Shown piece by piece: positions 1,843 to 59,453 of a stretch of DNA of 64,000 nucleotides; the stretch's first letter is position 1, and each line of letters starts with the position of its first letter. The notes under the pieces were generated by a model. It saw only the letters and a program-made list of their open reading frames with translations, ran no database searches and had not been told where the DNA came from. The stretch is from contig BOKM01000001.1 in assembly GCA_016860985.1 (NCBI GenBank), positions 463,462 through 527,461 on the forward strand, written 5' to 3'. Position numbers and translations under genes: made by a program. The DNA comes from Patescibacteria group bacterium. Its GTDB lineage: Bacteria; Patescibacteriota; Dojkabacteria; GCA-002793355.

Positions 1843-1948
1843 GGGGTGGAGATTTTAGCTTAGTATTCAAGTGTACCACACTGCACTATTTTTGAGTTCA
1901 GTACGATACATTGGGCGATTACAAGCTAATCCGCATATTTTTTCTGCA

Positions 1949-1957
1949 TGCTACAAT
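1949..1957 (+). promoter_or_regulatory. Extended -10 box TGcTACAAT, 6 nt upstream of the murD ATG (leaderless-type promoter candidate)
   Basis: TG at 1949-1950 and TACAAT at 1952-1957; the ATG is at 1964. No Shine-Dalgarno sequence lies between them. Confidence 0.4.
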
Positions 1958-1963
1958 CGAATA

Positions 1964-3355
1964 ATGAAACAATTTCCACAATATGAGGGCAAGAAAGTTC
2001 TAGTATTTGGGCTTGGCCTAAATGATGGAGGACTTGGAATGGTCGATTTTTTTGTAGAGCAAGGCGCAGAAGTAACGATAACCGATGGAAAAACCGAAGA
2101 ACAACTTGCCAGCACACTCGAAAAGCTCAAAGAAAAAGGAGGAACGCTAACCTTTCATCTTGGAGGGCATATTGAAAGTGATTTTACTGATAACGACATT
2201 ATTATTCGTAACCCGGCAATAAAACCAGACAACCCATATCTCAAAATTGCCAAAGAGGCAGGAAAAACGATAGAGATGGAAATGTCCCTCTTTTTTAAAC
2301 TCGCTCCCTGTAAAATCGTAGGAATATCCGGAACAAAGGGGAAGTCAACCACCACAACACTTACCTACCTTATGTTAAAAAAGAAATTCGGCGATTCAGT
2401 TGTACTCGCAGGAAATATAGGCAAGAGTGCGATACGGGAACTACCGAAACTGACAAAAGATAACCTTGTGGTTCTTGAAATGTCGAGTTTTCAGCTAGAT
2501 GCACTTCGTGATGCAAAACTATCTCCCCATGTTTCTCTACTTACAAATATCTACGAAGATCACTTGAATTGGCACAAAGATATGGCTGATTACATCGACT
2601 GCAAGCAGACGATGTTCACTTTTCAAAAAGCAGGCGATATTACCATTTTGAATAGTGATGACCCAAGAGTTCATAATATGGAAAACGCAGCAAAAAAAAC
2701 AGGAGCAAAAGTTGTCACTTTTTCGAGCCAAGAATCAGCCGATTACCAAAGAAAAGAAATGGTGGTTTTTGAACAAAGCAAAGAGCTACTCACACTTGAA
2801 GGAATGATCGTAAATGGCGAGCATAATTTTCAGAATGCACTTGGAGCAATTGCCCTAGCCCGACAGTTTGACGTGACTGTGCCACAAATTTTAGAGGTAC
2901 TTTCAGAATTCACCGGTGTTGACGGAAGAGAACAATTGGTACGAGAAGTAAACGGCATAAAGATTTATAATGATACCACCGCGACCGCGATGGAATCGAT
3001 GTTAGCTGCAATGAACCGCTTTGGGCCACAGTTTCCAAAAAAGATAATAATGATTGCAGGGGGAATGGATAAAGGTATGGATTATTCACAGGTTGCACCT
3101 GTATGGAATACCTACTTAAAAGCGTTAGTTTTATTGGAAGGGACAGCATCTGAAAAAATGGCAACCGTAATGGACTCGAGTACAGTTCCTGTTCACAAAT
3201 ATTTTGGAGTTTTCAAAGACGCAGTAGAAAAGGCCTACTCTCTTGCACAATCTGGGGATATGATTATCCTTTGCCCTGGAGGAACAAGTTTTAATATGTT
3301 TGCAAACGAATTTGACCGCGGCAGACAATTCAACGACTTAGTTAACGCACTCTAA
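1964..3355 (+). CDS. murD: UDP-N-acetylmuramoylalanine--D-glutamate ligase
   Basis: N-terminal Rossmann-like 'KVLVFGLGLNDGG', P-loop 'GISGTKGKSTTTTL', and Mur ligase middle and C-terminal domains. I took the start at the internal ATG 1964, not the ORF-track start at 1871. Confidence 0.88.
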   Translation: MKQFPQYEGKKVLVFGLGLNDGGLGMVDFFVEQGAEVTITDGKTEEQLASTLEKLKEKGGTLTFHLGGHIESDFTDNDIIIRNPAIKPDNPYLKIAKEAGKTIEMEMSLFFKLAPCKIVGISGTKGKSTTTTLTYLMLKKKFGDSVVLAGNIGKSAIRELPKLTKDNLVVLEMSSFQLDALRDAKLSPHVSLLTNIYEDHLNWHKDMADYIDCKQTMFTFQKAGDITILNSDDPRVHNMENAAKKTGAKVVTFSSQESADYQRKEMVVFEQSKELLTLEGMIVNGEHNFQNALGAIALARQFDVTVPQILEVLSEFTGVDGREQLVREVNGIKIYNDTTATAMESMLAAMNRFGPQFPKKIIMIAGGMDKGMDYSQVAPVWNTYLKALVLLEGTASEKMATVMDSSTVPVHKYFGVFKDAVEKAYSLAQSGDMIILCPGGTSFNMFANEFDRGRQFNDLVNAL

Positions 3356-3358
3356 ACC

Positions 3359-4726
3359 ATGCATCTAACTCAACAGCAACTATCTGATACATTTAGCAGC
3401 ATTAGAAAAGTCCACTTTATTGGGATTACATCTCCGTTCTGTAGCTTCTCGGCAAGTTACCTCCTTTCAAAAGGTATAACCGTTACCGCTTCGGAAGCGA
3501 ATCAGGATTCAGAGGCCGCACAAAAATGGATTGAAAAGGGGATACTCTTCAAAGGCGGTCATTCTGCCGAATATATTCATGAGGATATTGATTTGGTCGT
3601 TTTTCCAAATGGAATTATTCCTGGAAATCCAGAAGTTGAAAAAACGCAAGAGAGTGGACTTCCTTACGTGTTGGTACAAGAATTGCTCGGTATTATCAGT
3701 CAACAATACAAGACAATTGCAATTGCGGGAACACACGGAAAAACAACGACTACCGCACTCGTTATCTGGTTACTGCACAAAACGATAGGAACACCAAACT
3801 TTATAGTCGGAGATGCAAAAGATAAAATAGCAGAATTAGGAACGAACTGGGAATCTCACCCAGAAAGTGAATACTTAGTAATCGAAGCGTGTGAGTACAA
3901 AAAACAATTTCTTGCCAGAGCCCCCCGTCCATACATTTCGGTAATAACGCATATCGATTTGGATCATACTGATTTCTACCCTAATCAGAGCAGTTACAAT
4001 CAAGCCTTCACAGAGTTTCTATCACACACTACCAATACCATTATTATCGATGATGCAAAGAAAAACGAGAAGGAGGTACTCAGCAATCTTCCCAAGGATA
4101 TAGCGGTAGTATCAACTGCGAATTTGAAAAAAGAGCTCGGTACAATTGAGTCAACTCACTTATTTGGTCATCATAATCAAGAAAATCTTATACGGGCGGC
4201 TGGCGTGGCTAAGGTAATTGGAATCTCCAAGATAGAAGCACTCAAAGCACTTTCACAATTTCCTGGGATTTCTTCCCGTTTTGAATATAAGGGAACAACG
4301 AAACAAGGCACACTTGTTTACAAAGATTTTGCGCATAACCCGCAAAAGATAACGGCCTGTTTGCAAGGCGCCAAAGAGGCCTATCCTAACAAAAAACTTG
4401 TTGTCGTTTACCAACCGCATAACCATGAGCGAACCAAAACGTTTGAAACAGAACTTATCAATTCTCTAAAGCAAGCAGACGTTCTTATCGTCCCAAACAT
4501 TTATTCTTTACGCGAAAGCGCCGATGAACGGGCACTTATATCTGCATCTACATTTGTCCGAAACATTCAAAAAAAATATCCTAACAAAGAAGTATTTTTT
4601 ACTGATGAGTTAGGTGTTTACCCTAAAACGCTTCAAAAGCTAACCACATTCAGCAATCCAAATAATCTGATACTTATTGTAAGCGCAGGTGATGTCGACA
4701 AAATTATTCCGGATCTACTCGGCTGA
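3359..4726 (+). CDS. murC: UDP-N-acetylmuramate--L-alanine ligase (MurC-like Mur ligase)
   Basis: 'IAIAGTHGKTTTTALV' P-loop, 'DFAHNPQKI' and 'VYQPHNHERTK' resemble MurC motifs. It follows murD by 3 nt. Confidence 0.8.
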   Translation: MHLTQQQLSDTFSSIRKVHFIGITSPFCSFSASYLLSKGITVTASEANQDSEAAQKWIEKGILFKGGHSAEYIHEDIDLVVFPNGIIPGNPEVEKTQESGLPYVLVQELLGIISQQYKTIAIAGTHGKTTTTALVIWLLHKTIGTPNFIVGDAKDKIAELGTNWESHPESEYLVIEACEYKKQFLARAPRPYISVITHIDLDHTDFYPNQSSYNQAFTEFLSHTTNTIIIDDAKKNEKEVLSNLPKDIAVVSTANLKKELGTIESTHLFGHHNQENLIRAAGVAKVIGISKIEALKALSQFPGISSRFEYKGTTKQGTLVYKDFAHNPQKITACLQGAKEAYPNKKLVVVYQPHNHERTKTFETELINSLKQADVLIVPNIYSLRESADERALISASTFVRNIQKKYPNKEVFFTDELGVYPKTLQKLTTFSNPNNLILIVSAGDVDKIIPDLLG

Positions 4727-5776
4727 TTGGCGCTTAGGTAGTTCGGTTTTCGCTTTTGATTCTTTAGCCGTTGTGCTTTGTTTCTGATTTACCTCAACTT
4801 TCGTAGTTTTTGGTGCAACAGCAAGCCATATTCCTACTACAAACAATAGAAGTGCAACAACGCCTAAATACGAGCCTTGTTGAGCGATTGGAGAGCCAAG
4901 TGTTGTTTGAATAAGTTCGCTCATGGAACCTATCCCCTTACCAAAACCCAGTAAGAGTAAACTCGCAAGCCCAATCGTGCCACCTGTTGCAAAAAAAGCT
5001 GCTACACGTGGGGTAAAGAGAAGCAGAAGTAACATTATAGAGACTACAATTGCGAGCCAAACCATAAGGATTCCTTTATCTAAAAAGGACTTGAGCGAAA
5101 GAAAACGCTGCCTATCCATTTCTGTTGCATTAGAATCGGAGGTTATTCCCTTTACTAGTACTTCGTTGATTTGCGGAAGCTTCATGTACTCTTTGGCTGC
5201 TGCCTCATATGTTGCACGAGATGGAGTTCCAAATGCACAAGGGACTTCCAAAAAATCTTGGGGAGAAATTTTACCAAGCTCTTTGATTTGTGCCGGAGTA
5301 CACGCTTCCAGTGCATCGTACCGAAGTTTGAGGACTGAAACTGCGAGATCTAATTGTTCGGCTGGTGTTCCGCCTGGTTTATACTTCCAAACGAGGGTTG
5401 GAGATTCACCATCTAGCCATGTATAGAAACCCGCCGCATTTGTTTTAAGGTTTTCACCGACAGACTCGGGAGAAAGAATCTTTCTGACGGTTATTCCGAG
5501 GGGAGAACTTTTATTGGCAGCTAACTGCAACGCCTCTTTTAACATGGGGTCGTCAATCGCTGTCGAAGACGAAGCACTTTCAAGTAATCCATTTACAAAG
5601 GCTTCGACTGAGTCTTTATCAGAAGCAAACGCATTAATCCATGCAAGTCCACTCTCTTTTTTGAAGAGTTCTTGCCCTGCAATCGAAAGTGGAATCGTCA
5701 CCACTACCGCGACAATTAAGGACATTCCCAGAAACAAACCTAACAACCAACGCATAATTGCAAAAAGTGTATTCAT
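4715..5776 (-). CDS. Hypothetical integral membrane protein
   Basis: 353-aa ORF with hydrophobic segments at the N-terminus and in the C-terminal third, and a Lys-rich tail. A TGtTACACT -10 box lies 5 nt upstream of the ATG. Confidence 0.6.
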   Translation of the reverse strand: MNTLFAIMRWLLGLFLGMSLIVAVVVTIPLSIAGQELFKKESGLAWINAFASDKDSVEAFVNGLLESASSSTAIDDPMLKEALQLAANKSSPLGITVRKILSPESVGENLKTNAAGFYTWLDGESPTLVWKYKPGGTPAEQLDLAVSVLKLRYDALEACTPAQIKELGKISPQDFLEVPCAFGTPSRATYEAAAKEYMKLPQINEVLVKGITSDSNATEMDRQRFLSLKSFLDKGILMVWLAIVVSIMLLLLLFTPRVAAFFATGGTIGLASLLLLGFGKGIGSMSELIQTTLGSPIAQQGSYLGVVALLLFVVGIWLAVAPKTTKVEVNQKQSTTAKESKAKTELPKRQSAE

Positions 5777-5827
5777 GTATCAGTGTAACAAATAATCAAA
5801 AACCTGCAAATTTGTTACAATTGCAAA

Positions 5828-6559
5828 GTGGCTAAACCTCTTATCACAATAGTTACCTGCACAAAGAATCAAGGGAAATATTTACCAGAGTTATTACAAT
5901 CGCTTACCACACAGCAAAAAAAGAACTTTGAGCATGTGATCATCGACGGTTTCAGCTCAGACGATACTGTTTCCCTACTAAATAAGTATAAAAAAGAAAA
6001 CGAAACTGCTTTTCCGATACATATCCATCAATTTCCTCCGTTAGGTATTGCTGATGCTATGAACAAAGGTATTCTTCACTCACACGGCGACTGGATAATC
6101 ATAATTCACGGAGATGACTATCTTATCAGCGAGAAAGCGACTGATGTAATAGAAAAAGCAGTAAAAATGAACACTCAATCAGAATGGATTGTTGCTAATA
6201 CGACTCGAAAGTTGTGGGGAATTCGATACACGACCAAAACATTTTTACTAAAGCCAATCTTATTTCGATTGCTCCCCGTCTACAACTTTTTAAACCATCA
6301 GAACATGATTATGAGGCGTGATTTATTCCTAAAATATGGTGGATTTCGAACCGATTTCAAAATCAATATGGATTATGAGTACTACCTACGCCTTTTGCAC
6401 CACGGAGTGATGCCTGCTGCTTTTGACGGGGAGTTTTCAGTCTTTCGAAGGCATGAATCGAGTGCCTCAGCAATGCGAGAAAATCAAGCAACCGTTGTTG
6501 AAGAATTCATAAAACTAAAGCGACAGTACAAGAATACAGTGAAATGGGGCAAAAGATGA
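5828..6559 (+). CDS. Glycosyltransferase family 2
   Basis: 'ITIVTCTKNQGKYLPELLQSL...HVIIDGFSSDDT' and 'IIIHGDDY' (DxD-like) are typical of the GT2 fold. GTG start with TGtTACAAT 6 nt upstream. Confidence 0.8.
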   Translation: MAKPLITIVTCTKNQGKYLPELLQSLTTQQKKNFEHVIIDGFSSDDTVSLLNKYKKENETAFPIHIHQFPPLGIADAMNKGILHSHGDWIIIIHGDDYLISEKATDVIEKAVKMNTQSEWIVANTTRKLWGIRYTTKTFLLKPILFRLLPVYNFLNHQNMIMRRDLFLKYGGFRTDFKINMDYEYYLRLLHHGVMPAAFDGEFSVFRRHESSASAMRENQATVVEEFIKLKRQYKNTVKWGKR

Positions 6560-6572
6560 TAAGATACCGAAC

Positions 6573-7517
6573 ATGACTCACCTTTCAGGAGAAACTGTCG
6601 CTACTCCACGAGCAACTTCTCAAGAAACAATCAGCAAACGACATGCACTTCCAGATGTTGCGGCACAATTTGCCGACCTAGAAGTTTCTTACGTGCACAC
6701 TCAAAACCGCAATACGTTTGTGCAGTATCGACTTGCCGAGAGTAACCCAGCAACAGCAGAAAACGTAGTACTCGCATTAAACGGAGGTGGAAATAATCCA
6801 TTGCACAACTTTGCACCTTTCGCAAAAAATATCTTGCAATCCGATGCGAACGTCACACGCTTTGTAGCGATGTATTATCCATTACACTACGAAGAACGTA
6901 ACGACGGTAGTGTTTTTGATATTCCAAAAACCATGGAGGATTTAGCTCAAGCGCGCGAACTACTCAATTTACCGCCAAAAGCGCGTATTCATCTTACTGG
7001 TTTAAGCCTGAGTGCCGATCAACTTATTGCCAGCATTGTCGGAGGACAATTACCACAAGAACAGTTTGCCTCCGTAACGCTACTCAGCCCTCTTGCAATC
7101 TTCCCAGAAGGAGAAAAGCATACAAAAGAACTACTCGCTCACTTTGTAGGTGAATCAATGGCGGCAAGAATGCGTGACCGAATAATTGCTACTATCGATG
7201 ATGTTACAAGAGCTTTTGAACTGCCACCGAACATGAAATATTTAGCAGAAACAATAGAACAATTTTTTGAGCAAATGCATCATTACCTAGCAAACCCTAT
7301 TGAACCTGTGAGTAAGATCCCACGTATTACCATGAAATGGGCGACCAAACGGGAGATACTCACCCAAGAAAGGAGAATGCAACTCGCTGCTTTATTAACC
7401 CCATTCACAGATCAACTACAACTCTCTCAGGAATTAATCCCAGGTCGTCACGGTGCGTCTATGCAACCGAAATACTGGAACGATTATTCGAGAGCAGTTA
7501 TCGAAGGTATTAGTTGA
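6573..7517 (+). CDS. Hypothetical protein (weak alpha/beta-hydrolase-like features)
   Basis: 314-aa ORF. 'LNGGGNN' and 'HLTGLSLSA' weakly resemble an oxyanion-hole and nucleophile-elbow pattern. No firm family assignment. Confidence 0.5.
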   Translation: MTHLSGETVATPRATSQETISKRHALPDVAAQFADLEVSYVHTQNRNTFVQYRLAESNPATAENVVLALNGGGNNPLHNFAPFAKNILQSDANVTRFVAMYYPLHYEERNDGSVFDIPKTMEDLAQARELLNLPPKARIHLTGLSLSADQLIASIVGGQLPQEQFASVTLLSPLAIFPEGEKHTKELLAHFVGESMAARMRDRIIATIDDVTRAFELPPNMKYLAETIEQFFEQMHHYLANPIEPVSKIPRITMKWATKREILTQERRMQLAALLTPFTDQLQLSQELIPGRHGASMQPKYWNDYSRAVIEGIS

Positions 7518-8229
7518 TTTCGACTGGGTTTCCGGCGAAGTAGAGCTTCCCTTTTGTAATAACTAAAGCATCTTCGGGTCTAAGGGCAAAACCTTTTACC
7601 CCTTTTGGTAGAAGCTTTTCGACAGCCGGCAGCAGATTATCTTCAAAGTGAGGGTATACTTCAAAATTAACCAACCCTAATGGCTTAAAGTTCATTACCT
7701 GCGGATCACTCTCACCAATAAAGTTAGCTGCCCAATGCGTTGAAGTCGATACGCACATTGCGCCTGCGCTAAAGCCTACGAAGGGCTTACCTTTCTTAAC
7801 AATTTCTACTAAATTTTCCCGAATTCCTGCCTCATCAACTGCATGAAGTAACCTAGAAACAAGCCCTCCACTCATACATATCACATCGCACGTCTCCAAC
7901 GAGCGCAGCAGTATCTCTTTTGGCCACTTTTCTAAATCAAGTTGCTTGAGATACATGTTATTTATGGTCGTAAACTCTTGTAGGTACACATAACTCATGT
8001 CTGCACGTGCTTGATCCAGTCCACCATTCGGAATCAAGACGACTTTTTTATCATCAAGAGAACCACCAAGCATCTTCTCAAGCATTGGCTTCAAAGATTT
8101 AAATAGGTGTTCGGAAGGTAGAATCATATTGAGCGTTTCATCAGGATATGCTCCAATTTCCCTTACAGGCGAGTCTACCGAAAATACCTCTTTGAAGGCT
8201 GCTTTTCCTTTAAATTTGGAATACGACAT
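7510..8229 (-). CDS. Peptidase S51 / dipeptidase E-like (class I glutamine amidotransferase-like fold)
   Basis: 'PFVGFSAGAMCVS' matches the S51 nucleophile motif (GxSAG), and the length is about 240 aa. Confidence 0.7.
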   Translation of the reverse strand: MSYSKFKGKAAFKEVFSVDSPVREIGAYPDETLNMILPSEHLFKSLKPMLEKMLGGSLDDKKVVLIPNGGLDQARADMSYVYLQEFTTINNMYLKQLDLEKWPKEILLRSLETCDVICMSGGLVSRLLHAVDEAGIRENLVEIVKKGKPFVGFSAGAMCVSTSTHWAANFIGESDPQVMNFKPLGLVNFEVYPHFEDNLLPAVEKLLPKGVKGFALRPEDALVITKGKLYFAGNPVEIN

Positions 8230-8250
8230 ACACGAAGTATAGCATCACAA

Positions 8251-8811: not shown

Positions 8812-9164
8812 TATGATTTGTTCTTGATTTTCATCAGCGGGTGATTAGCCGCCTCTTTCATTGCCGAGAAATGTGACTCTTCGAGATCAATATCGTAATG
8901 TCGTGCAATTCGAACAAGCATTAGAAAAATATCGGAAAGTTCATCACCAATTTTACTTTTTGTTGCGTTAAACTCTTTGACTGTATCTCTTCCCGCCATA
9001 TAGTACCCTTCGGCAGCTAGGATCATTTTGCTTAATTCTCCAACCTGCTTCATAAGTTCGAGTGTCGCGCCCTCAGCTCCCCACGGTCGTTTTTCCACTT
9101 TTTCAAATGCATCTATCAACACATGTGATGCAGAAATAACCTCTTGAAATGTTTTTGATTGCAT
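8811..9164 (-). CDS. MazG-like nucleotide pyrophosphohydrolase
   Basis: 'ELMKQVGELSKMI...IGDELSDIFLMLVRIARHYDIDLEE' is a MazG/NTP-PPase helix pattern. I chose the start at ATG 9164, which has TACAAT 5 nt upstream; the ORF track extends to 9236. Confidence 0.7.
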   Translation of the reverse strand: MQSKTFQEVISASHVLIDAFEKVEKRPWGAEGATLELMKQVGELSKMILAAEGYYMAGRDTVKEFNATKSKIGDELSDIFLMLVRIARHYDIDLEESHFSAMKEAANHPLMKIKNKS

Positions 9165-9232
9165 AAAGGATTGTACTACAAACCATGAATGCAACACGAT
9201 ATTCCAACAATACCAAGTCACCGACATCAGCT

Positions 9233-10273: not shown

Positions 10274-10293
10274 ATTGGACCAATTGTTCAAAG

Positions 10294-10699
10294 TGGAGGT
10301 GAGGGGAATCGAACCCCTGTTCAGCTATTCTAAAAAAGAAGTTTCTCCCAAAACAGTCTGAGTTGTTTACGAGATTATGCCTAAAAATCAGACAAAAAAG
10401 CATAACCCGCCCACACAAATACGATTCTGGCAACTCAGCGGAACTAGCGGCCAGTCGGCATGAACTTTCTTACTCCTGGCTCTCCGCTTGTCATGCGAAG
10501 GAGGAAAAGCCAGTTACGTCGAAATTAGACGTATGAGAATTGCATTGCTGGAGAAACAGCTTTGAGGGCTGAGTTCACGAACGATGCGATTTTCTCAGAA
10601 AGGGTTTGTTTGGCACTTTATGTGCTTTGATAGTTTAACGGGATATCAGCCCGTTTGGCTACTTCTTTCAACGAACAACCGTCTAAACCGATCACCCCC
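10294..10699 (-). ncRNA. ssrA: tmRNA (SsrA), one-piece
   Basis: The minus-strand RNA begins GGGGGUGAUCGGUUUAGACGG and ends GGGGUUCGAUUCCCCUCACCUCCA. The acceptor stem GGGGGUG/CACCUCC contains a G3:U70 pair followed by discriminator A, and CCA is not encoded. A PK1-like hairpin (ACGGG/CCCGU) is present. A TGaTATAAT box (hexamer at 10716-10721) lies upstream. Confidence 0.9.
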
Positions 10700-48666: not shown

Positions 48667-48713
48667 ATCTGCATTATAGTAGCACGACCACGCAATACAT
48701 GCTACATTCAGTC

Positions 48714-50852: not shown

Positions 50853-52673
50853 CTAGATTCCTTTTAACTCATCGACGGTTGTTGCCTGTTCCGCCTTCTT
50901 TTCCCTGAATTTTTTAAACCTTGGAAAGCGAAGTGCATAACCTGAAGAATGAAGGGGGCTTTTGGTTATTTCGTCTGCTTCGACTTCTACTACAAGCGAG
51001 GGCAATAAATAAACATCTGGAGTGAGCGACTTAGGAATAACTACATTATCCAGTTTTCTATCGGTCTTTACCTCGTCACAGGCTGCTTTAATGATTTTCC
51101 ATTGCTCGTGTGTAACCCCCGTGCCTATTTTTGTTACGGTTAGGTACTCATCTGTCTCTCGGTTATAAACAGCAGCAAGCAGTGCACCGATACCAAATTG
51201 GGCGAGTTTTCCTTCTCCGCGATAATAACCTACCAAAACGATATCAACCGTATCTGCGAGTTCTTTTTTCATCGCTTTTTTATATTTTAACCAATCAAAG
51301 TTACGCGTTCCTGGAGTATAAATAGATGACGTATCCTTAAAAATGACTCCCTCTAAACCCTCTGCCACATATTCAAGGAAAAGTTTTTCCGCCTCAGCAA
51401 CATCTTTTGGATAATGAATTGGAGTTTTAACAATTGTACGTTGAACCTCCTGATTTTCGTCGAGAAAAGTTAAGAGTTCTTTTCGAACTGAAAGTGATTT
51501 GTCCATCAAATTTTCATTATTTACCAAAAGAATATCAAAAGAGAAGACTTTAACAGGAACTTCGTTTGCTGCACCTTCTACCCCGTGTTTCCGCTTGCGA
51601 GTCATTGTTTGTTGGAAAGGAAGATACTCCTGAACGATATCATTGTAACCGATGACTTCACCATCGAGCACAATGGATTCAACAGAGACACCGTGCTTTT
51701 TTTCATACTGCAGTGGAAGCTTCTTTGCTGCTTCTACGACTTCGGGGAACATTTCGGTCATATTTTCGAGATTGCGGGAAAAAAGCATAACTGAGTAATC
51801 CTCTTTTTCATTCTGTTCTGGTTGAGAAAAAAGGCTAAGATTCGCTTCTTTTGACTTATCTTCGTGTGAAAAGTATGGTTGCCAAACTCTTTCTGCATAG
51901 ACGTTTTCAAGAACCTTTTCTTTGAATACGTGGAGTTGTATTCGCAAACCGTCATATTTTGGCTCTTCAATTGGCTCTGGAATTCTTTTGTAGATAGACT
52001 CGATTGAATCTTCACGTTCAACCAGCTTTGCTGAGACAGGAATTCCTGGTGAAAATACTGATCGTTCCGGGGCTGCTTCGCCATACTTTAGAGAGAGATA
52101 CACTGTATGCCCAATATCTGAACAATTCGCAAACAGCTTTTTTAGCTCGTCATTTTTTGTCCCCTGTAATGCGCCGAGTGCCTCAAGTATGGTTCTTTCG
52201 CTTGCTCCAAGCCGAAGTTTGCTGTTCACAATTCGCAGTGTATACTTGCCCGCTAGAGGTGAGCATCTTTTTAGCAGATTAATTAGTAATTCTTGTTTCT
52301 TTGCCTGTGAGCCTGTCCCTTTGGTTTTTGCAACATCCCACAAGAGAGAGTAGTAGTCGAGTAGGGTAAGGTCAGTCTCTTGTTTTGGTGCGTAGGCCTC
52401 CCATACTGAACCGATATCACCATATGTGGTTAAATCTTGCACAACATCTTTACCCAAGAGTGTTTCGACAACAGTTCGCAACGTTTTATCAGACAATTGA
52501 AACTCAACCGCAATAAATTCAGGGACAATTCTTCCTATTATCAAATATGCCGTAATTGCACCTTCTTCAGGGGTTGCCTGACGGAAATAATCAGTTAAAA
52601 GGGCCTGCATTTCGAGTCTTTTTGGTGTTTTCTCAATTGCCGAAAATAATTCCATTACTGTTGTCAGTTGCAT
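50853..52673 (-). CDS. lig: ATP-dependent DNA ligase (archaeal/eukaryotic Lig1-like, with N-terminal DNA-binding domain)
   Basis: Adenylation motif I 'EPKYDGLRIQ', 'MLFSRNLE', 'LDGEVI' and an OB domain 'VDIVLVGYYRGEGK'. Start ATG 52673 has TGgTACAAT 5 nt upstream. Confidence 0.88.
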   Translation of the reverse strand: MQLTTVMELFSAIEKTPKRLEMQALLTDYFRQATPEEGAITAYLIIGRIVPEFIAVEFQLSDKTLRTVVETLLGKDVVQDLTTYGDIGSVWEAYAPKQETDLTLLDYYSLLWDVAKTKGTGSQAKKQELLINLLKRCSPLAGKYTLRIVNSKLRLGASERTILEALGALQGTKNDELKKLFANCSDIGHTVYLSLKYGEAAPERSVFSPGIPVSAKLVEREDSIESIYKRIPEPIEEPKYDGLRIQLHVFKEKVLENVYAERVWQPYFSHEDKSKEANLSLFSQPEQNEKEDYSVMLFSRNLENMTEMFPEVVEAAKKLPLQYEKKHGVSVESIVLDGEVIGYNDIVQEYLPFQQTMTRKRKHGVEGAANEVPVKVFSFDILLVNNENLMDKSLSVRKELLTFLDENQEVQRTIVKTPIHYPKDVAEAEKLFLEYVAEGLEGVIFKDTSSIYTPGTRNFDWLKYKKAMKKELADTVDIVLVGYYRGEGKLAQFGIGALLAAVYNRETDEYLTVTKIGTGVTHEQWKIIKAACDEVKTDRKLDNVVIPKSLTPDVYLLPSLVVEVEADEITKSPLHSSGYALRFPRFKKFREKKAEQATTVDELKGI

Positions 52674-52712
52674 ACAGGATTGTACCACTAGCAGCCGAAA
52701 TTGCCGTAGTAT

Positions 52713-52741
52713 TTTACTTACACACTGCCACGTTATATAAT
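52713..52741 (+). promoter_or_regulatory. Candidate promoter for the ileS leader (-35 TTTACT, 17-nt spacer, -10 TATAAT)
   Basis: TTTACT at 52713-52718 and TATAAT at 52736-52741. It lies upstream of the T-box leader. Confidence 0.35.
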
Positions 52742-52747
52742 TACTCA

Positions 52748-52946
52748 GTACGCATTGACCCAGCAATCACTGGTGAGCGTCAGGAAGAAATGCACATTAG
52801 CATTGTAGAACCTGTCGGCGACCTCCGAACCAACTGGTTAAGCCATTTAGGCTAAGGGATACAAAAACGTATCTGAACGAGGGTGGTACCGTGAGCTAAA
52901 TCACTCACCCCTCTATAGGGATTTGCATTAATTTACTATAGAGGCC
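52748..52946 (+). promoter_or_regulatory. T-box leader (translational type) controlling ileS
   Basis: Canonical T-box core GAGGG-UGGUACC-GUGAG...CUCAC-CCCUC at 52879-52913. Stem III-like hairpin at 52857-52874. An alternative 9-bp helix (52910-52918 with 52936-52944) ends 2 nt before the AUG and has no U-tract. A candidate AUC-A specifier is at 52766-52769. Confidence 0.8.
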
Positions 52947-55883
52947 ATGGCACACAACGAATTTACACTCCCGAATGTCCGCAATTTTTACACTGACGTC
53001 GAACAACCTATTCTATCGTTTTGGAAAGAGAACAAAATCTTCGAAAAATCAGTAGATCAGCGCAGTGACAAGGATCGATTTGTATTCTACGACGGTCCTC
53101 CCTTTGTTACTGGTTTACCCCATTATGGGCACTTGCTTGCGAGCGTACTCAAAGACATCGTCCCTCGTTACCAAACAATGAAAGGCAAGAAAGTCGAGAG
53201 ACTCTGGGGTTGGGATTGTCACGGCATTCCAATTGAAGAGATGGTCGAAAGAAAATACAAAACAAAGAACCGAAGAGAAATCGAATCACGGGTTGGCATC
53301 AAAGAGTTTATAGAAGCCTGTGCGTCATATGTCACCGATGTTTCGGGAGAATGGGAGTGGTATATCGACAGAATCGCGCGCTGGGTCGATATGAAAAAAC
53401 CATACAGAACAATGGACCTTTCCTACATGGAAACAGTGATGTGGGTGTTTAAGCAATTCTACGAAAAAGGGTTAGTCTATAAAGGAAAACGCGTTTCTTT
53501 GTACTGCACCCGCTGTGGTACGCCTCTCTCAAACTTTGAAATCGCTATGGACAACTCGTACCGAGACCTTGAAGATCCTTCAGTATTTGTGAAATTCCCC
53601 GTCAAAGATGAAAAGAATACCTACATACTCGCATGGACAACAACACCATGGACTCTTCCGGCAAACAGTGCGTTGGTAGTTAATCAAGAGGCAGATTATG
53701 TAAAAGTAAAATCCGGCACCGATTCTATGTACCTTGCAAAAGCTCTCGTAGAAAAAGTCTTTAAAGATTTAGAATACACGGTAGAAGACGAAGTAAAAGG
53801 AGCAGCATTGATTGGGCTACATTACGAACCATTATTCAACTACTTTACTGCAGGGGAGCATGATTATCAGGTTTATCACGCAGATTTTGTCAGCATGGAA
53901 GAAGGTACAGGAATAATCCACATGGCTCCTGGATTTGGTGAGGACGACACTGCGCTCGGAAAGCAAATCGGGTTATCCATGCACGAAACAATCGACGACG
54001 AAGGAAGGCTTATACCCGAAGTTACTGATTATGCAGGCAAGTACTTTAAAGAAGCCGATCCATTTATCTCCGAAGACTTAACAAAGCGAGGTCTTATGCT
54101 AAAAGCGGAGCGAATCGTTCACAGTTATCCTATCTGTCACCGATGCAAAACACCTCTTGTTTATAAAGCACAGGACTCTTGGTATGTGAATATCCAGCAA
54201 ATTAAGGACCAACTCTACAAAAACAACGAAAATATCAACTGGATTCCAGAACATATCAAACACGGAAGATTTGAAGATGCGATTAAAACCTTCCCAGATT
54301 GGGGTATTTCAAGAACTCGTTATTGGGCAACTCCGATGCCAATTTGGGAATGTGACTCCTGTGACCACCAGGAAGTGTTAGGCTCAGTAGCAGAAATTGA
54401 AGAGCGATCAGGCAAAAAAGTTACAGACCTTCATCGTCCATACATAGATGAGCATACGTACGCTTGTAAAAAGTGTGAGAAAGGAACAATGAAGCGTGTC
54501 GCAGAGGTTGTTGATAGCTGGTTGGAATCAGCCTCCATGCCGTTTGCGCAATTCCACTATCCCTTTGAAAACAAAGAAAAGTTTGAAGCCAACTTCCCCG
54601 GTGATTTTATTACCGAATACGTGGGGCAAACGAGAGCTTGGTTTAACGTGATGCACGTGGTTTCAACTATACTTTTCGGTACAAATGCCTTCAACAATGT
54701 AATCTGCACAGGCGTTATCAAAGGAACCGATGGCCAAAAAATGAGTAAAAGCCTTGGCAACTACCCAGACCCTCGAGGTGTTATCGAAAAATACGGTGGC
54801 GACGCATTCAGACTCTATATTGCAGGAAGCGTATTACCATTAGGTGAGGACTTGAACGTTTCTGAAGAATCAATATCTGCCCCCGGAAAAGAGATTCTCA
54901 TGCCACTAATGAATACATACAAGTACTTTGCGTTATACGCCAATCAACATACCTTTGCTTTTGACCAAAATGCAAAATCGGAGCATGTACTCGATAGGTG
55001 GATTCTTGCACGTGTTAATTCTGTTGTTAGAACAATAGATTCAATGATTGCCGGATATACACTTCCAAAGGCAATTGCAGAGATTAAGCCCCTTGTAGAC
55101 GACATTTCCACTTGGTACATCCGAAGATCCCGAGATCGTTTTGTTGAGGGTGATAACAATGCATTGCAAACGTTATATCAAGTACTTCTTCTTGTGGTTA
55201 CCGCAATAGCACCAATCTCACCGTTTATAGCAGAGTATCTTTACCAAGAGTTAAAACGTGCGTTACCTACAGACCTTCAACAGGAATCAGTGCACCTACT
55301 CCTTTTCCCGTCACTTGCAGAGCAAACTGCAGAAGAACAATCAGTCCTAGCAACAATGGAACTTGCACGAAAGGCTGCATCGCTTGGGCAAAGTATTCGA
55401 GTAGAAAAAGCAATTGCACTCAAACAACCGCTTAGCCAAATGTTAGTTAATACAAAGGAGAAGCTCACAGCAGAATACCTAGACCTTTTATCAGAAGAGC
55501 TTAATGTTCAGGAGACACTCGCCGTGACCGAATTAACAGAAAAAGAGTTTTTGGCGGTTAAGAAAGATCAAGGAATAGAAGTCGGCTTAAATCTCGAAAT
55601 TACACCAGAACTTGCAGAAAAAGGGTTACTTCGCGAAGTGACAAGAGCGATCCAAGCCTCAAGAAAGAATGCTTCTCTCCAAATCGGGCAACATGCAAAG
55701 GTGCGAATTTTCACAGAAAGTACCGCAATCAAGGAACTTGTTGCAAAATACGGCACAGAGCTAAAGCAGGGAACACTCCTCGAAAGCATCGATACCGTTC
55801 AGCAACCACTTGGTGAAAACGCATTTACAGCAGCTGTAGGGCCACAGAAAGAGCAATTATCCATTGAAGTCACGCCACTTTAG
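52947..55883 (+). CDS. ileS: Isoleucyl-tRNA synthetase (type 2, eukaryote-like)
   Basis: 'PPFVTGLPHYGHLL' (HIGH), 'GQKMSKSLGN' (KMSKS) and a CP1 editing region. 978 aa. Confidence 0.96.
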   Translation: MAHNEFTLPNVRNFYTDVEQPILSFWKENKIFEKSVDQRSDKDRFVFYDGPPFVTGLPHYGHLLASVLKDIVPRYQTMKGKKVERLWGWDCHGIPIEEMVERKYKTKNRREIESRVGIKEFIEACASYVTDVSGEWEWYIDRIARWVDMKKPYRTMDLSYMETVMWVFKQFYEKGLVYKGKRVSLYCTRCGTPLSNFEIAMDNSYRDLEDPSVFVKFPVKDEKNTYILAWTTTPWTLPANSALVVNQEADYVKVKSGTDSMYLAKALVEKVFKDLEYTVEDEVKGAALIGLHYEPLFNYFTAGEHDYQVYHADFVSMEEGTGIIHMAPGFGEDDTALGKQIGLSMHETIDDEGRLIPEVTDYAGKYFKEADPFISEDLTKRGLMLKAERIVHSYPICHRCKTPLVYKAQDSWYVNIQQIKDQLYKNNENINWIPEHIKHGRFEDAIKTFPDWGISRTRYWATPMPIWECDSCDHQEVLGSVAEIEERSGKKVTDLHRPYIDEHTYACKKCEKGTMKRVAEVVDSWLESASMPFAQFHYPFENKEKFEANFPGDFITEYVGQTRAWFNVMHVVSTILFGTNAFNNVICTGVIKGTDGQKMSKSLGNYPDPRGVIEKYGGDAFRLYIAGSVLPLGEDLNVSEESISAPGKEILMPLMNTYKYFALYANQHTFAFDQNAKSEHVLDRWILARVNSVVRTIDSMIAGYTLPKAIAEIKPLVDDISTWYIRRSRDRFVEGDNNALQTLYQVLLLVVTAIAPISPFIAEYLYQELKRALPTDLQQESVHLLLFPSLAEQTAEEQSVLATMELARKAASLGQSIRVEKAIALKQPLSQMLVNTKEKLTAEYLDLLSEELNVQETLAVTELTEKEFLAVKKDQGIEVGLNLEITPELAEKGLLREVTRAIQASRKNASLQIGQHAKVRIFTESTAIKELVAKYGTELKQGTLLESIDTVQQPLGENAFTAAVGPQKEQLSIEVTPL

Positions 55884-56700
55884 CGAAAGAGAACCGAAAA
55901 AGGGGTACTGAAGCTAAAAATAAGCGAACCGACTGATCTTTTGACAACGTATCAAGCATTACGGTTGTTGTTGCTCCGGTTGTAATTACATCATCTACGA
56001 CAATCACTACCTCTGGAGCGAGTGAGATGAGGTTGGGGACTTGAAAAGCATTGAGGGAATATTCACTGTTTAGCGTTAACAACCGCTGTTGTCGGGTTTT
56101 TTTTGCTTGCGCTATGCTGCCTTCACGTTTTTTCAGAATTTCTTGCGAAATATAACAATTACATGCAAAGTTATCGCGAAGATATCTTCCGAGCAGAATC
56201 GCTAATTCTCGCGCGGGCGAAAAACCTCGTTCAGTATATTTATTGCGTGACATAGGGACCGGAAGGAGCAGTATTCTCAAGTCTTTCCATTTTTCGAAGC
56301 ATGAAACAATGTAATTAAACGGATCTAGCCGAAAGTACGACTGAATCATCAAGGCAATCTCATTAAAAAGATGATAACAACCCTTGTATTTATAGGTGGA
56401 GAGAAGATATTTTACAGTTTTTGCATACTCAAAGCAAGAAATCGTCTGGGCATAAGTTAATCGTTTTGTCTGACATATCGAATGAAGCAACCCTTTTTCC
56501 GAGAATTGATTGCATTCAGCACAGGAGGGAGTGGAAAAAAGAAATTGCTCTGCGCATGTACAACAAAGAGGGTACACTTCGTGGTTACAAGCAGCACAAG
56601 TAAAAAGCCCACAGTTTCGTGAAACAAAATACGATATTCGAGAAAAAAGATTTTCTGTGTACAAATTGTATTCAGACAGCAGGGCAAAATCTTTTCTCAC
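55870..56700 (-). CDS. comF: ComF-family protein (phosphoribosyltransferase domain with N-terminal Cys-rich region)
   Basis: N-terminal CxxC pairs ('CAACNHEV', 'CAECNQ') and a C-terminal PRTase motif 'VVIVVDDVITTGATT'. Confidence 0.8.
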   Translation of the reverse strand: MRKDFALLSEYNLYTENLFSRISYFVSRNCGLFTCAACNHEVYPLCCTCAEQFLFSTPSCAECNQFSEKGLLHSICQTKRLTYAQTISCFEYAKTVKYLLSTYKYKGCYHLFNEIALMIQSYFRLDPFNYIVSCFEKWKDLRILLLPVPMSRNKYTERGFSPARELAILLGRYLRDNFACNCYISQEILKKREGSIAQAKKTRQQRLLTLNSEYSLNAFQVPNLISLAPEVVIVVDDVITTGATTTVMLDTLSKDQSVRLFLASVPLFRFSFAKVA

Positions 56701-56727
56701 ACAAAGAATATATAGCCCAAATTATGA

Positions 56728-57408
56728 CTATGTTCTCTTTTTTAGCAAAAAATACTGAAAACTCCTCCCTTTTCGAATCCATTTTTGGTGAAAATGCGTG
56801 ATAGGGAGCCCAAACTTGGGCGCTTCATACACACCATCCTCGACAGAGTATTTCGTGGTGACTTCATTCGCCTGACTGGCTATAAACTTGCTGTAATCGT
56901 CCCAATCTGTGGCAATAAGTATTTCACCATTTGATTTGAGATAGGGATATACTTTTTCAAAAAATTCTTTGGTAATTGGTCTTCGTTTGGCATGCTTTTT
57001 CTTGTGCCAAGGGTCGGGAAAGAGAATCACAATTCGAGAAATTGAATCCGGAGCATAATGCAAATCGAGTGACTCGTATCCGCTTCCTTTATAGACAAAA
57101 ACGTCAGAGCGTTTACGAATTTTACGTTTTGTAAGCAAGTAAAAACGTGCCTTAATTTCATACCCGACAGTAACGGACCTTGCAGAATCATTTGCTAAAA
57201 GCACCTCTCCGTGTCCTGAGCCAATTTCAACTTGCAGTGACCTCCCTTGAGCTATTGCACTCCAGTTTACTGGCGAAGGAAGTTTTTGATACTCAATATT
57301 CTTAAGTTTTTCAACAGTTGGTCTAAAGAAAAAGCTTTGAATTCTCTTGGTGATACGTTTAAACACATCTCTACTTGTTTTTTTGAGTAACCACCAATTT
57401 CTTTTCAC
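56728..57408 (-). CDS. trmB: tRNA (guanine46-N7)-methyltransferase
   Basis: 'VEIGSGHGEVLL' and 'ILFPDPWHKKKHAKRR' are TrmB signatures. GTG start. Confidence 0.9.
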   Translation of the reverse strand: MKRNWWLLKKTSRDVFKRITKRIQSFFFRPTVEKLKNIEYQKLPSPVNWSAIAQGRSLQVEIGSGHGEVLLANDSARSVTVGYEIKARFYLLTKRKIRKRSDVFVYKGSGYESLDLHYAPDSISRIVILFPDPWHKKKHAKRRPITKEFFEKVYPYLKSNGEILIATDWDDYSKFIASQANEVTTKYSVEDGVYEAPKFGLPITHFHQKWIRKGRSFQYFLLKKRT

Positions 57409-57459
57409 AATATCGTGCTATAATTGAATTGTTAGATTATATCGCATTATTGGGCAACA

Positions 57460-58665
57460 ATGAATAACCGACGCGAAGATTTTCCCTTACTAAAACGGCA
57501 CCTTAATGGTTTTCCACTTATTTACTTTGATAATGCTGCGACCTCACTAAAACCAAAACAAGTGATTTCTGCGATAAGCTCCCATTACGAAACACTTGGC
57601 GGAAATCCAGGCAGAGGAACACACGAGCTGGCATTTGAAACTTCGAAAAAAATAGCGCAAACCAGGCAACTCATTCTCCGCTTCCTAAATGCAGATGACT
57701 CTTATACGGTACTTTTTACAAAAAACGCGACAGAAGGGTTTAACCTTGTCGCACAATCTATAGGCAAAGATCCTGCGATTAATGCTGTAATCACGACCGA
57801 ACTTGAGCACCATTCTAACCTCGTTCCTTGGCTGCAATATGTAAAAGACAAAAAGATAGTTGTGGTTCCCATAAGTTCCGATGGACTCCTGAAAGAAGAA
57901 ATTATTGAACAAACACTTAAAAATGAAAAAGGTAGCGACCTGCTTGCAATAACACTCGCCTCCAACGTAACTGGTCAAACGATCTCATTCGACAAAATCC
58001 TTCCCATGGCACGTGCAAAAAACGATGTCGTCCTTGTTGACGCAACACAGGCTATTGGGCATAAGAAAATTAGCTTAAACGATACCCCTTTCGATTTTCT
58101 TGTTGCTTCAGGTCATAAAATGTTTGGACCAGAGGGGATTGGTTTTGTGGTTCTAAAAAAACTGCATCTCCCCCGTATGATTCCGCTTTTATATGGTGGA
58201 GGAGCAATTAAAACAGTGTCTACTCAAAGCTTTAAACTCCTCGAGGACTTAGAGAAATTTGAAGCAGGGACTCCCCACTCAGCGGGTATAAGCGGACTTC
58301 ATGCTGCCATTACCTACATTCAAGAGATTGGGATAGACGCTATATATGCCTACGAATCTGAACTAAAAGAATACCTTATCCAAAAGCTTACAAAGCTTCC
58401 GAGTTGTCGCGTTTTAGGAGAAAACGTACCACATGGAAGCCCAATATGTAGCTTTGTTCACGAAACACTCCACCCACACGATATTGCAGAATATCTGAAT
58501 GAACACGGCGTTGCTGTAAGGGCAGGGCTACACTGTGCAGAACCATTACATAAAGCACTCAAGGTGCAGGGAAGTACCAGATTAAGTCTTTCTATCGCAA
58601 ATACAAAAGAAGAAATTGATTATGTTATTTCATTGTTAACAGCATGCTTTCAGAAATACGCATAA
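57460..58665 (+). CDS. sufS: Cysteine desulfurase (class V aminotransferase, SufS-like)
   Basis: 'IYFDNAATSLKP', PLP-Lys 'SGHKMFGPEGIG' and catalytic Cys 'RAGLHCAEP'. Confidence 0.88.
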   Translation: MNNRREDFPLLKRHLNGFPLIYFDNAATSLKPKQVISAISSHYETLGGNPGRGTHELAFETSKKIAQTRQLILRFLNADDSYTVLFTKNATEGFNLVAQSIGKDPAINAVITTELEHHSNLVPWLQYVKDKKIVVVPISSDGLLKEEIIEQTLKNEKGSDLLAITLASNVTGQTISFDKILPMARAKNDVVLVDATQAIGHKKISLNDTPFDFLVASGHKMFGPEGIGFVVLKKLHLPRMIPLLYGGGAIKTVSTQSFKLLEDLEKFEAGTPHSAGISGLHAAITYIQEIGIDAIYAYESELKEYLIQKLTKLPSCRVLGENVPHGSPICSFVHETLHPHDIAEYLNEHGVAVRAGLHCAEPLHKALKVQGSTRLSLSIANTKEEIDYVISLLTACFQKYA

Positions 58666-59267
58666 AACCACGCCTCCCGAGGATGATAACAAAATCAATT
58701 AAAGAGGTAATTGGTTTAATCGTCCTTTTTATAATTGGTAGTATATTGCTACTCCAGCTTCCTACCCAACAGCCTGCACCTTACGAGGATACCTACAAAT
58801 ATTTAAGCAGTACAGGCCAACTATACCAAGATGTCGCGATTGCAAAGGAAAAGAACTTAGAAAAAGTGTATGTAGAAGAAATTACAGACGGAGACACTAT
58901 AAAAGTTACTCGAGCAGATGGTTCCAAAGCAATAATCAGATATATCGGCATTGATACCCCAGAGATTAAACACAGAGAAGGTGAAATAAATGAGAAGTAC
59001 GGGCAAGAAGCAACTAGTGTCAATGCGTGGTTGGTATATAACAAAGAAGTATATCTGCAAAAGGATGCTGCAGAAACGGACAAATATGGAAGACTACTTC
59101 GTTATGTTTACCTTGAAGACGGCACTATGGTTAACTACGTGTTAATTCGTTTGGGCTATGCAACTATCATGACCATTCCACCGAATGTTGCTTTTCAGCA
59201 ACAATTTTATGCAGCACAGGAGCTTGCAAAAACGGAAGGGCGCAACCTTTTCGCACCAACAGAATAA
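58644..59267 (+). CDS. Membrane-anchored thermonuclease (staphylococcal nuclease/SNase-like)
   Basis: TM segment 'VIGLIVLFIIGSILLL'. 'DGDTIKV', 'IRYIGIDTPE', 'YGQEAT' and 'DKYGRLLRYVY' are SNase motifs. An alternative start is ATG 58683. Confidence 0.82.
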   Translation: MLSEIRIKPRLPRMITKSIKEVIGLIVLFIIGSILLLQLPTQQPAPYEDTYKYLSSTGQLYQDVAIAKEKNLEKVYVEEITDGDTIKVTRADGSKAIIRYIGIDTPEIKHREGEINEKYGQEATSVNAWLVYNKEVYLQKDAAETDKYGRLLRYVYLEDGTMVNYVLIRLGYATIMTIPPNVAFQQQFYAAQELAKTEGRNLFAPTE

Positions 59268-59289
59268 CCAGCTGAGTCGATGAAAATAG

Positions 59290-59298
59290 TGTTATAAT
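59290..59298 (+). promoter_or_regulatory. Extended -10 box TGtTATAAT, 8 nt upstream of the small ORF preceding murJ
   Basis: TG at 59290-59291 and TATAAT at 59293-59298; the ATG is at 59307. Confidence 0.4.
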
Positions 59299-59306
59299 GA
59301 TTCAAA

Positions 59307-59453
59307 ATGCTCGGATTTTTGAGAAAAAATGATGTATTGCTCTTCTGGACTGCGTTTGTGATACTTTCATTCATTTGTTACGGAGGGTTCACTTACATGT
59401 TTAGCAGGTATTCACCTCCAACCGAAGCGGAACTTATTTTGAAAATCAAATAA
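59307..59453 (+). CDS. Small hydrophobic protein (48 aa) translationally coupled to murJ
   Basis: This ORF is too short for the ORF track. It encodes MLGFLRKNDVLLFWTAFVILSFICYGGFTYMFSRYSPPTEAELILKIK with one predicted TM segment. Its stop overlaps the murJ start as TAATG. Confidence 0.4.
   Translation: MLGFLRKNDVLLFWTAFVILSFICYGGFTYMFSRYSPPTEAELILKIK

Follow-up and report, generated by a model that had tools for sequence, protein, structure and literature searches.

A −10 hexamer placed directly before start codons points to mostly leaderless mRNAs in a Dojkabacteria-like Patescibacteria genome segment

In a 64-kb stretch of the genome of a Patescibacteria group bacterium (64,000 nt of contig BOKM01000001.1, assembly GCA_016860985.1; hereafter the window, whose first letter is position 1), most apparent transcription units begin with a TAnnnT hexamer that ends only 5 to 9 nt before the start codon. 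Most of the mRNAs that begin at these heads are probably leaderless, a reading supported by several indirect lines of evidence that converge. The window has a GC content of ~41%, is ~97% coding when the longest open reading frames (ORFs) are taken, and carries the housekeeping genes ddl, murD, a murC-like gene, uvrA, uvrB, uvrC, ileS, aspS and ksgA as well as those for an ATP-dependent DNA ligase and the transfer-messenger RNA (tmRNA).

A TAnnnT hexamer is enriched 5 to 9 nt before start codons

A set of starts was chosen without reference to the motif by taking the longest-ORF start of each non-overlapping ORF of at least 60 amino acids (aa; n=56). The gap was counted as the nucleotides between the TAnnnT hexamer and the start codon, and gaps of 5 to 9 nt were tested. 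The motif precedes 27 of the 56 starts at such a gap; the background is 9.5% if every ATG is counted and 8.2% if every position is. Shuffling the genes' own 40-nt upstream regions 5000 times left 8.6±2.6 genes with the motif and 19 at the most, and moving the same 5-nt range elsewhere upstream scored 6 to 11 genes. The gap profile of the 56 starts peaks at 5 nt (10 genes) and 6 nt (8 genes). When the search was reversed and both strands were scanned for TAYAAT followed after 5 to 9 nt by ATG, 15 of the 20 occurrences opened an ORF of at least 100 codons, as against 19% of all ATGs, and a sixteenth leads into a conserved 48-aa gene. A held-out flank, 9.3 kb on the upstream and 6.3 kb on the downstream side, was taken from the 148-kb Logan contig (run DRR258781) on which the window occupies positions 77945-141944, and was scored with starts from an independent gene-calling pipeline. 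Here 10 of 16 genes carry the motif, overlapping internal genes make up three of the other six, and rpoD and dnaG look leadered.

A preliminary description of this DNA had listed 23 hexamers, 11 on the plus and 12 on the minus strand, and every one of them reads TAnnnT with an ATG (21) or GTG (2) 5 to 9 nt further on. Seven heads, all on the minus strand, were added, giving 30 heads (27 ATG, 3 GTG) that were aligned on the hexamer to derive a consensus. The statement that nearly every transcription unit starts in this way holds for the majority of heads and was otherwise overstated, the share being ~30 of ~40 or about three quarters. In full, the window was classified into ~30 leaderless-type heads, one borderline head (29060, gap 4), ~9 leadered or unclear heads and ~16 internal genes. 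The 30 heads are given below with the hexamer (preceded by TGn or a −35 element where one is noted), the gap and the start codon; L001, L002 and L003 are the close relatives described further on.

Heads on the plus strand:
1952-1966: MurD-like ligase; TGcTACAAT, 6 nt, ATG 1964; Pfam MurD N domain ~10 residues in
5816-5830: family 2 glycosyltransferase; TGtTACAAT, 6 nt, GTG 5828; first start in the ORF, divergent from 5776 (51 bp)
6560-6575: TAAGAT, 7 nt, ATG 6573; 13 nt past the upstream gene, the sole head without A at position 4
20752-20765: TTGACT, 17 nt, TAAAAT, 5 nt, ATG 20763
25563-25580: ABC-2 permease; TGtTAAACT, 9 nt, ATG 25578; weaker site
29062-29075: class Ib aminoacyl-tRNA synthetase; TGTATAAT, 5 nt, ATG 29073; 12 bp from the divergent start 29060
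37084-37100: RodZ-like helix-turn-helix (HTH) protein; TATAAT, 8 nt, ATG 37098; two-hexamer scan 10/12
42364-42380: endonuclease III-like; TATAAT, 8 nt, ATG 42378; L003 orthologue TATAAT, 6 nt, ATG
46425-46439: purple-acid-phosphatase-like surface protein; TACAAT, 6 nt, ATG 46437; L002 TATAAT, 8 nt, ATG; L003 TAAAAT, 6 nt, ATG
48703-48716: KsgA/RsmA; TGcTACATT, 5 nt, ATG 48714; L002 TGcTACAGT and L003 TGcTACATT at the same spacing
59293-59309: 48-aa ORF before MurJ; TGtTATAAT, 8 nt, ATG 59307; also called by the independent gene caller

Heads on the minus strand:
1840-1857: D-Ala-D-Ala ligase; TAAAAT, 9 nt, ATG 1842; weaker, with TGgTACACT 27 nt upstream as an alternative −10
5774-5787: TGtTACACT, 5 nt, ATG 5776
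8227-8241: peptidase S51; TGcTATACT, 6 nt, ATG 8229
9162-9175: MazG-like nucleoside triphosphate pyrophosphatase, 117 aa; TACAAT, 5 nt, ATG 9164
15263-15276: PEGA-domain protein; TGcTATACT, 5 nt, ATG 15265
16687-16700: UvrC; TATAAT, 5 nt, GTG 16689
19998-20013: UvrA; TGTATAAT, 7 nt, ATG 20000
31178-31192: added head; TATAAT, 6 nt, ATG 31180
33255-33268: UvrB; TATAAT, 5 nt, ATG 33257
34401-34414: added head; TCGACA, 18 nt, TGTATAAT, 5 nt, ATG 34403; two-hexamer scan 11/12
35810-35824: added head; TTGACG, 17 nt, TAGAAT, 6 nt, ATG 35812
37023-37036: RecD/PIF1-like helicase; TGcTATACT, 5 nt, ATG 37025
39864-39877: aspartyl-tRNA synthetase (AspRS) with C-terminal editing domain; TATAAT, 5 nt, ATG 39866; L003 TATAAT, 6 nt, ATG
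45854-45868: AAA_14/DUF4143 ATPase; TTGCTA, 17 nt, TGtTACATT, 6 nt, ATG 45856; −35 and −10 conserved in L002 and L003
46380-46393: added head; TGTATAAT, 5 nt, ATG 46382
48664-48678: added head, cohesin-domain protein; TATAAT, 6 nt, ATG 48666; TACTAT conserved in L003
50002-50016: added head; TATAAT, 6 nt, ATG 50004
52671-52684: ATP-dependent DNA ligase; TGgTACAAT, 5 nt, ATG 52673; L001, L002 and L003 all TATAAT, 5 nt, ATG
56698-56712: added head; TATATT, 6 nt, GTG 56700; L003 TACAGT, 6 nt, ATG

The hexamers resemble −10 elements of sigma-70-type promoters

At the free positions of the hexamer the 30 heads have T (17) or C (8) at position 3, A (29) at position 4 and A (22) at position 5, a consensus of TA(T/C)AAT. 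The A at position 4 compares with 27% among all 2161 TAnnnT of the window (p=6e-16). TGn, described earlier as often preceding the hexamer, does so directly in 12 of the 30 heads against a background of 6.5% (p=2e-7), and the alignment has a weak TTG upstream of the hexamer at a 17-bp spacer. Since TA(T/C)AAT, TGn and TTG at 17 bp are features of sigma-70 extended −10 promoters, the alignment supports the assignment of the hexamers as −10 elements of predicted housekeeping sigma-70-type promoters, TGnTA(T/C)AAT with a weak TTG at −35. The gene for a full-length RpoD (regions 1.1 to 4) is located ~10 kb upstream, outside the window on the same contig.

Gaps of 5, 6, 7, 8 and 9 nt are found in 13, 10, 2, 3 and 2 of the heads, which places the purine that opens the start codon 6 to 7 bp past the hexamer in 23 heads and 8 to 10 bp past it in the other seven. 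Transcription start sites (TSSs) are usually centred 7 bp downstream of the −10 element (PMC12641261). Heads with gaps of 7 to 9 nt have a purine available as a start 1 to 3 nt before the ATG, and a pyrimidine precedes the start codon in 12 of the 13 heads with a 5-nt gap, in keeping with initiation at Y(−1)R(+1). Divergent start codons are only 12, 47, 51, 54 and 72 bp apart and therefore leave no room for leaders. RNA polymerase would initiate on the start codon or 1 to 3 nt before it, the resulting mRNAs would have 5' untranslated regions (UTRs) of 0 to 3 nt, and the ribosome would recognise the 5'-terminal AUG or GUG directly, without Shine-Dalgarno (SD) pairing. We infer both the TSS positions and this mode of ribosome recruitment from the arrangement of the DNA.

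Operon-internal genes lack the hexamer and SD sequences are rare throughout

None of the 12 genes that overlap their upstream neighbour or lie within 5 nt of it has the motif, compared with 27 of the other 44 genes (16 of 28 divergent genes and 11 of 16 same-strand genes with a gap of at least 13 nt; Fisher p=9e-5), and the hexamer therefore marks the heads of transcription units and not translation starts in general.

SD core 4-mers within 20 nt upstream were found at 0 of 30 leaderless heads, 2 of 15 internal genes and 0 of 11 other heads, against 8.6% of random positions, and the SD pairing of internal genes has a mean free energy (dG) of −1.2 as against −2.2 at random positions, complementarity being computed with an assumed generic anti-SD tail; neither the window nor its sampled flanks contain an rRNA gene. 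The claim that no SD sequence intervenes between hexamer and start codon is accurate for all 30 heads and carries no weight, because SD sequences are absent throughout the window. The junctions of internal genes are overlaps or A-rich, and translation of these genes probably proceeds by coupling or reinitiation, or else begins without SD at junctions that are A-rich and unstructured. Within the Candidate Phyla Radiation (CPR) the anti-SD motif is kept outside a Parcubacteria subgroup, and the ribosome is reduced, with a shortened bS1 and without uL30 and bL9 (PMC9297842).

The spacing is kept in close relatives and varies across CPR lineages

By identity of the ligase protein the closest relatives are L001 (74%) and L002 (68%), both metagenome-assembled genomes (MAGs) labelled Saccharibacteria, and L003 (66%), from CP129470.1, a complete genome of 'Candidatus Dojkabacteria'. 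Among named AspRS homologues the closest are from Dojkabacteria, with up to 80% identity, and the bacterium is thus a member of the CPR, most likely of Dojkabacteria (WS6). The window is syntenic with L002 and L003 between its positions at 38 and 62 kb. The motif at a gap of 5 to 9 nt was found at 8 of 20 starts in L002 (p=3e-4) and 11 of 19 in L003 (p=2e-7); no motif enrichment was seen at unrelated loci, two of similar GC (L007 and L010) included. The distance from −10 to start is kept at orthologues although the surrounding DNA has diverged, among them aspS, nth, ksgA, the 48-aa ORF and the genes for the AAA ATPase, the phosphatase-like protein and the ligase, and the AAA ATPase orthologues in L002 and L003 keep a TTGCnA −35 element too.

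The breadth of the pattern was sampled at loci around more distant AspRS homologues, with ~20 genes each. It is present in L016 (48% identity; 11 of 16) and L017 (45%, labelled Doudnabacteria; 9 of 18), and was not seen in L015 (60%; 4 of 21) or L018 (labelled Dojkabacteria, without the editing domain; 3 of 15), where TATAAT boxes lie 25 to 36 nt upstream of starts. SD cores are rare in all four alike. In these small samples the leaderless pattern is lineage-variable in the CPR: it occurs in the window, L002, L003, L016 and L017, and not in L015 and L018.

Start codons selected by the spacing agree with homologues

Four start codons that had been chosen by their distance from the hexamer agree with independent evidence. 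The MazG-like start at 9164 yields 117 aa, in line with homologues of 115 to 120 aa and not with the alternatives of 138 to 141 aa; the helicase start at 37025 has the Pfam AAA_30 domain from residue 5; the ligase start at 52673 gives the 606 aa found both for the orthologues and by the independent gene caller; and upstream of the AAA ATPase start at 45856 the reading frame of L002 is interrupted by stops. The MurD start at 1964 gives 463 aa according to the independent gene caller, and the Pfam domain of KsgA begins at residue 3 from its start at 48714. In all, the spacing settles at least six ambiguous starts in the window, with which homologue lengths and orthologue alignments agree. An apparent N-terminal extension of the AAA ATPase upstream of ATG 45856 in a tblastn alignment was rejected, the DNA there being conserved promoter sequence that contains in-frame stops in L002.

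Alternative explanations

TAnnnT is common in AT-rich intergenic DNA and might lie near starts by chance: the two strands of the window hold 2161 copies, 9.5% of all ATGs have one at a gap of 5 to 9 nt, and the 40-nt upstream regions are 64% A+T. However, no local shuffle of the 5000 reached 27 genes, other 5-nt ranges of the same upstream regions give only 6 to 11, and L007 and L010, of similar GC, show no enrichment; taken together, the shuffles, the all-ATG background, the reverse test and the unrelated loci effectively refute a compositional artefact. Alternatively, the hexamer might be a non-SD translation signal on leadered mRNAs, for example an S1 site like the Bacteroidetes 'group B' motif, and not a promoter. 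Another signal might indeed be expected where SD complementarity is missing window-wide, and group B genomes do carry a non-SD motif near their starts (PMC6028130). Such a signal should precede internal genes too, yet it precedes none of the 12, the unconstrained positions of the hexamer match a sigma-70 −10 element, TGn and TTG at 17 bp have no ribosome-binding role, and at the AAA ATPase gene the −35 element is conserved as well. We consider a translation signal most unlikely.

A third possibility accepts the −10 boxes and puts the true starts further downstream, so that the mRNAs would be leadered and the starts mis-assigned. The choice of start is a live issue, since 8 of the 23 listed starts differ from that of the longest ORF, and the gene caller picked other starts for two genes. 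Against this, for 15 of the listed starts the ORF offers no earlier one, alignments with orthologues set in at residue 1 or 2 of the proposed proteins, Pfam domains begin 3 to 10 residues in, the MazG-like homologues have the length given by the proposed start, and the sharp spacing of 5 to 6 nt to the proposed ATG would be left unexplained, and general mis-assignment is thus very unlikely. Finally, the hexamers could be functional promoters while most transcripts arise by read-through from upstream and the leaderless form is a minor one. This would be in keeping with the lack of any excess of intrinsic terminators, with same-strand gaps of only 13 to 45 nt, and with internal genes that are evidently translated without SD, so that internal initiation is possible. 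About half of the heads are nevertheless divergent and out of the reach of read-through (the motif is found in 16 of 28 divergent genes), and the conservation in relatives of hexamers close to a strong consensus speaks for their substantial use, leaving dominant read-through unlikely.

Several observations weigh against mostly leaderless transcription and should be set beside the evidence for it. The modal gap of 5 nt places the A one base nearer the −10 element than the usual optimum, and three of the listed hexamers are weak: TAAGAT (6560) and, each with a gap of 9 nt, TAAACT (25563) and TAAAAT (1852). A generic two-hexamer promoter scan of 28001-48000 was unenriched, with 38 sites against 38.2 expected from shuffles; it does not discriminate in this DNA, and of its hits only the top three coincide with heads. 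The −35 element is weak and the signal purely positional. Terminator-like sites over the same interval are not enriched either (16 against 17 expected), and together with the short same-strand gaps this means that many genes may also be read through and translated internally. Besides ileS, at least five heads have their −10 element 23 to 46 nt upstream, and at three of these both L002 and L003 share it. The DNA sampled amounts in all to the 64 kb window, the 15.6 kb flank and ~45 kb of close relatives.

Leadered heads

The isoleucyl-tRNA synthetase gene ileS had been singled out as an exception on account of a T-box leader. ileS is confirmed as an exception, with a predicted leader of ~200 nt, and more heads than ileS alone are leadered. 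Those with an identifiable −10 element are as follows:

52736-52949, plus strand: ileS leader; TATAAT at 52736-52741, T-box match at 52746-52915, putative sequestrator hairpin at 52908-52944, ATG 52947
57406-57462: divergent leadered pair GTG 57408 (minus) and ATG 57460 (plus); TATAAT at 57436-57441 (minus) and 57419-57424 (plus), 27 and 35 nt upstream; both conserved in L002 and L003
43891-43945, minus strand: UbiA-family prenyltransferase; ATG 43893 with TATACT (43940-43945) 46 nt upstream, a box that L002 and L003 share
10744-10775, plus strand: ZIP transporter; TATAAT at 10744-10749, 23 nt upstream of ATG 10773

A further head at 50769 (minus strand) is probably leadered, and the gene at 40058 (plus strand) has no canonical −10 at any convincing position. 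The pair at 57408 and 57460 comprises genes for a TrmB-like methyltransferase and a class V aminotransferase; both lack SD and are exceptions whose leadered arrangement is conserved, with implied leaders of ~20-28 nt. In their 51-bp divergent region (57406-57462) the predicted transcripts overlap by a few nt at the 5' ends.

At the gathering threshold Rfam reported only the tmRNA over the window, and the T-box surfaced only at an E-value threshold. The ileS leader matches the Rfam T-box (RF00230) with E=8e-7; its 37 bits fall short of the gathering score (93), AGGGUGGUACC is conserved, and ~4 nt stand in place of Stem I. No intrinsic terminator was found in the leader; the hairpin at its 3' end (52908-52944) is not followed by a U-tract and stops 2 nt short of the AUG, which points to translational control. 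The leader suggests a degenerate T-box acting on translation, as in actinobacterial ileS T-boxes, for which Sherwood, Grundy and Henkin (2015) reportedly described a short Stem I and action on translation. Like these, the window leader has a T-box core, a drastically shortened Stem I and a U-tract-less hairpin by the start codon, and unlike them it scores below the Rfam gathering score. In a host with practically no SD use, what the hairpin would cover is the region of the start codon and not an SD of the classical kind. No T-box is present at the ileS orthologues of L002 and L003, which look leaderless, with TATAAT, 5 nt, ATG, and the TACTAT that lies 7 nt before the ileS AUG of the window may be a remnant of a leaderless promoter.

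Neighbouring genes and elements

The 48-aa hydrophobic ORF at 59307-59453 (plus strand), which has a leaderless-type promoter of its own, is located directly upstream of MurJ and is conserved in L002 and L003. At 29060-29075 the −10 elements of two divergent genes overlap, TATAAT at 29062-29067 on the plus strand and TGgTAGATT at 29065-29070 on the minus strand (gap 4), and the two predicted promoters may interfere with each other.

AspRS (38067-39866, minus strand) has a C-terminal YbaK-like tRNA_edit domain, and homologues of it bear the name aspartate--tRNA(Asn) ligase, which denotes the non-discriminating type. The fusion is common to the ~50 closest homologues, while distant CPR homologues (~440 aa) are without it. 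The DNA ligase (50853-52673, minus strand) is of the archaeal/eukaryotic ATP-dependent type, with its nearest homologues outside close CPR relatives (31-35% identity) in Dehalococcoidales, Terriglobales and DPANN or other archaea. Between uvrA and uvrC there is a 91-aa ORF at 16719-16994 (minus strand) that begins 4 nt past the uvrA stop and encodes a cysteine-rich (CxxC) protein with no Pfam match; a plus-strand ORF at 16644-16973 produced by greedy ORF selection was rejected in favour of this gene.

An inverted repeat, AACTAAAAACCTTTTCAGTT, at 40007-40026 is conserved in L003 (~21330-21350) and lies ~30-50 nt upstream of the gene for a winged-HTH and NUDIX protein, possibly NrtR-like; it is a likely candidate operator. 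A TATAAT followed after 6 nt by ATG 39947 near the repeat opens only a 21-aa ORF. Immediately after the tmRNA gene (10291-10699, minus strand, 92 bits) comes an ORF of 346 aa (9233-10273) for which Pfam gave no match; its start is at most 20 nt from the tmRNA 3' end, and the two may be co-transcribed.

Implications

For the Dojkabacteria-like clade as a whole we tentatively propose an almost wholly SD-independent translation, in which some three in four transcription units would lack a leader and internal genes would be translated by coupling or from unstructured A-rich junctions; we hold this to be quite possible, if somewhat short of probable. If true, leaderless mRNAs would be used here at a level otherwise known from haloarchaea and Deinococcus, and a link to the reduced CPR ribosome, with its shortened bS1 and no uL30 or bL9, would be possible (PMC9297842). 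A low-GC lineage with a reduced genome and a reduced ribosome would join the mainly leaderless bacteria, with SD use there suggested to be near nil. This is relevant to the questions of whether leaderless initiation is an ancestral trait or one that arose repeatedly and of what it requires of the ribosome's components, and the variation among CPR lineages would permit a comparative test of its origin.

In practical terms, gene finders that rely on SD sequences will misplace starts in CPR MAGs, and for Patescibacteria, only now becoming genetically tractable, the spacing offers a rule for constructs: TGnTATAAT, then 5 to 6 nt, then ATG. A literature search, of incomplete coverage and no proof of novelty, found nothing linking leaderless mRNAs or this promoter architecture to CPR, Patescibacteria, Saccharibacteria or Dojkabacteria, and promoters and UTRs are not discussed in a TM7x transcriptome preprint.

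Comparison with known systems

Genomes assigned to group C by GeneMarkS-2 (Actinobacteria, Deinococcus-Thermus) have a Pribnow box ~6-10 nt before first-in-operon starts, with a leaderless share typically of 25-50% and SD sites at the remaining genes (PMC6028130). The window resembles members of this group such as Mycobacterium tuberculosis, M. smegmatis, Corynebacterium and Streptomyces in having a TAnnnT box close to the first gene's start, a predicted ATG or GTG 5' end and no SD between them. It is unlike them in that its internal genes and leadered heads have no SD enrichment, and the lack of SD at internal genes makes it depart from classical group C; it also differs in belonging to a CPR lineage, in its GC of ~41% and in a leaderless share of heads of ~75% in this sample. 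For Deinococcus deserti, 167 of 262 mapped transcripts are given as leaderless, each with its start directly preceded by a −10 box (de Groot et al. 2014, as cited in PMC6028130). A leaderless majority is thus common to both, although according to that account it was shown there by RNA-seq and proteogenomics, while here it is read from sequence, and the phyla are unrelated.

The leaderless fraction is also comparable to that of group D archaea, the haloarchaea and Sulfolobus, with 60-80% leaderless units (PMC6028130); theirs have a box at ~−26 read by TBP/TFB, whereas here a sigma-70 −10 element would be found at ~−10. With Bacteroidetes-type group B genomes the window shares little SD pairing genome-wide (PMC6028130), but there the same motif precedes all genes on leadered mRNAs, and here it precedes heads only. 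These comparisons support the view that the predicted architecture is of the known group C type, here in a Patescibacteria lineage.

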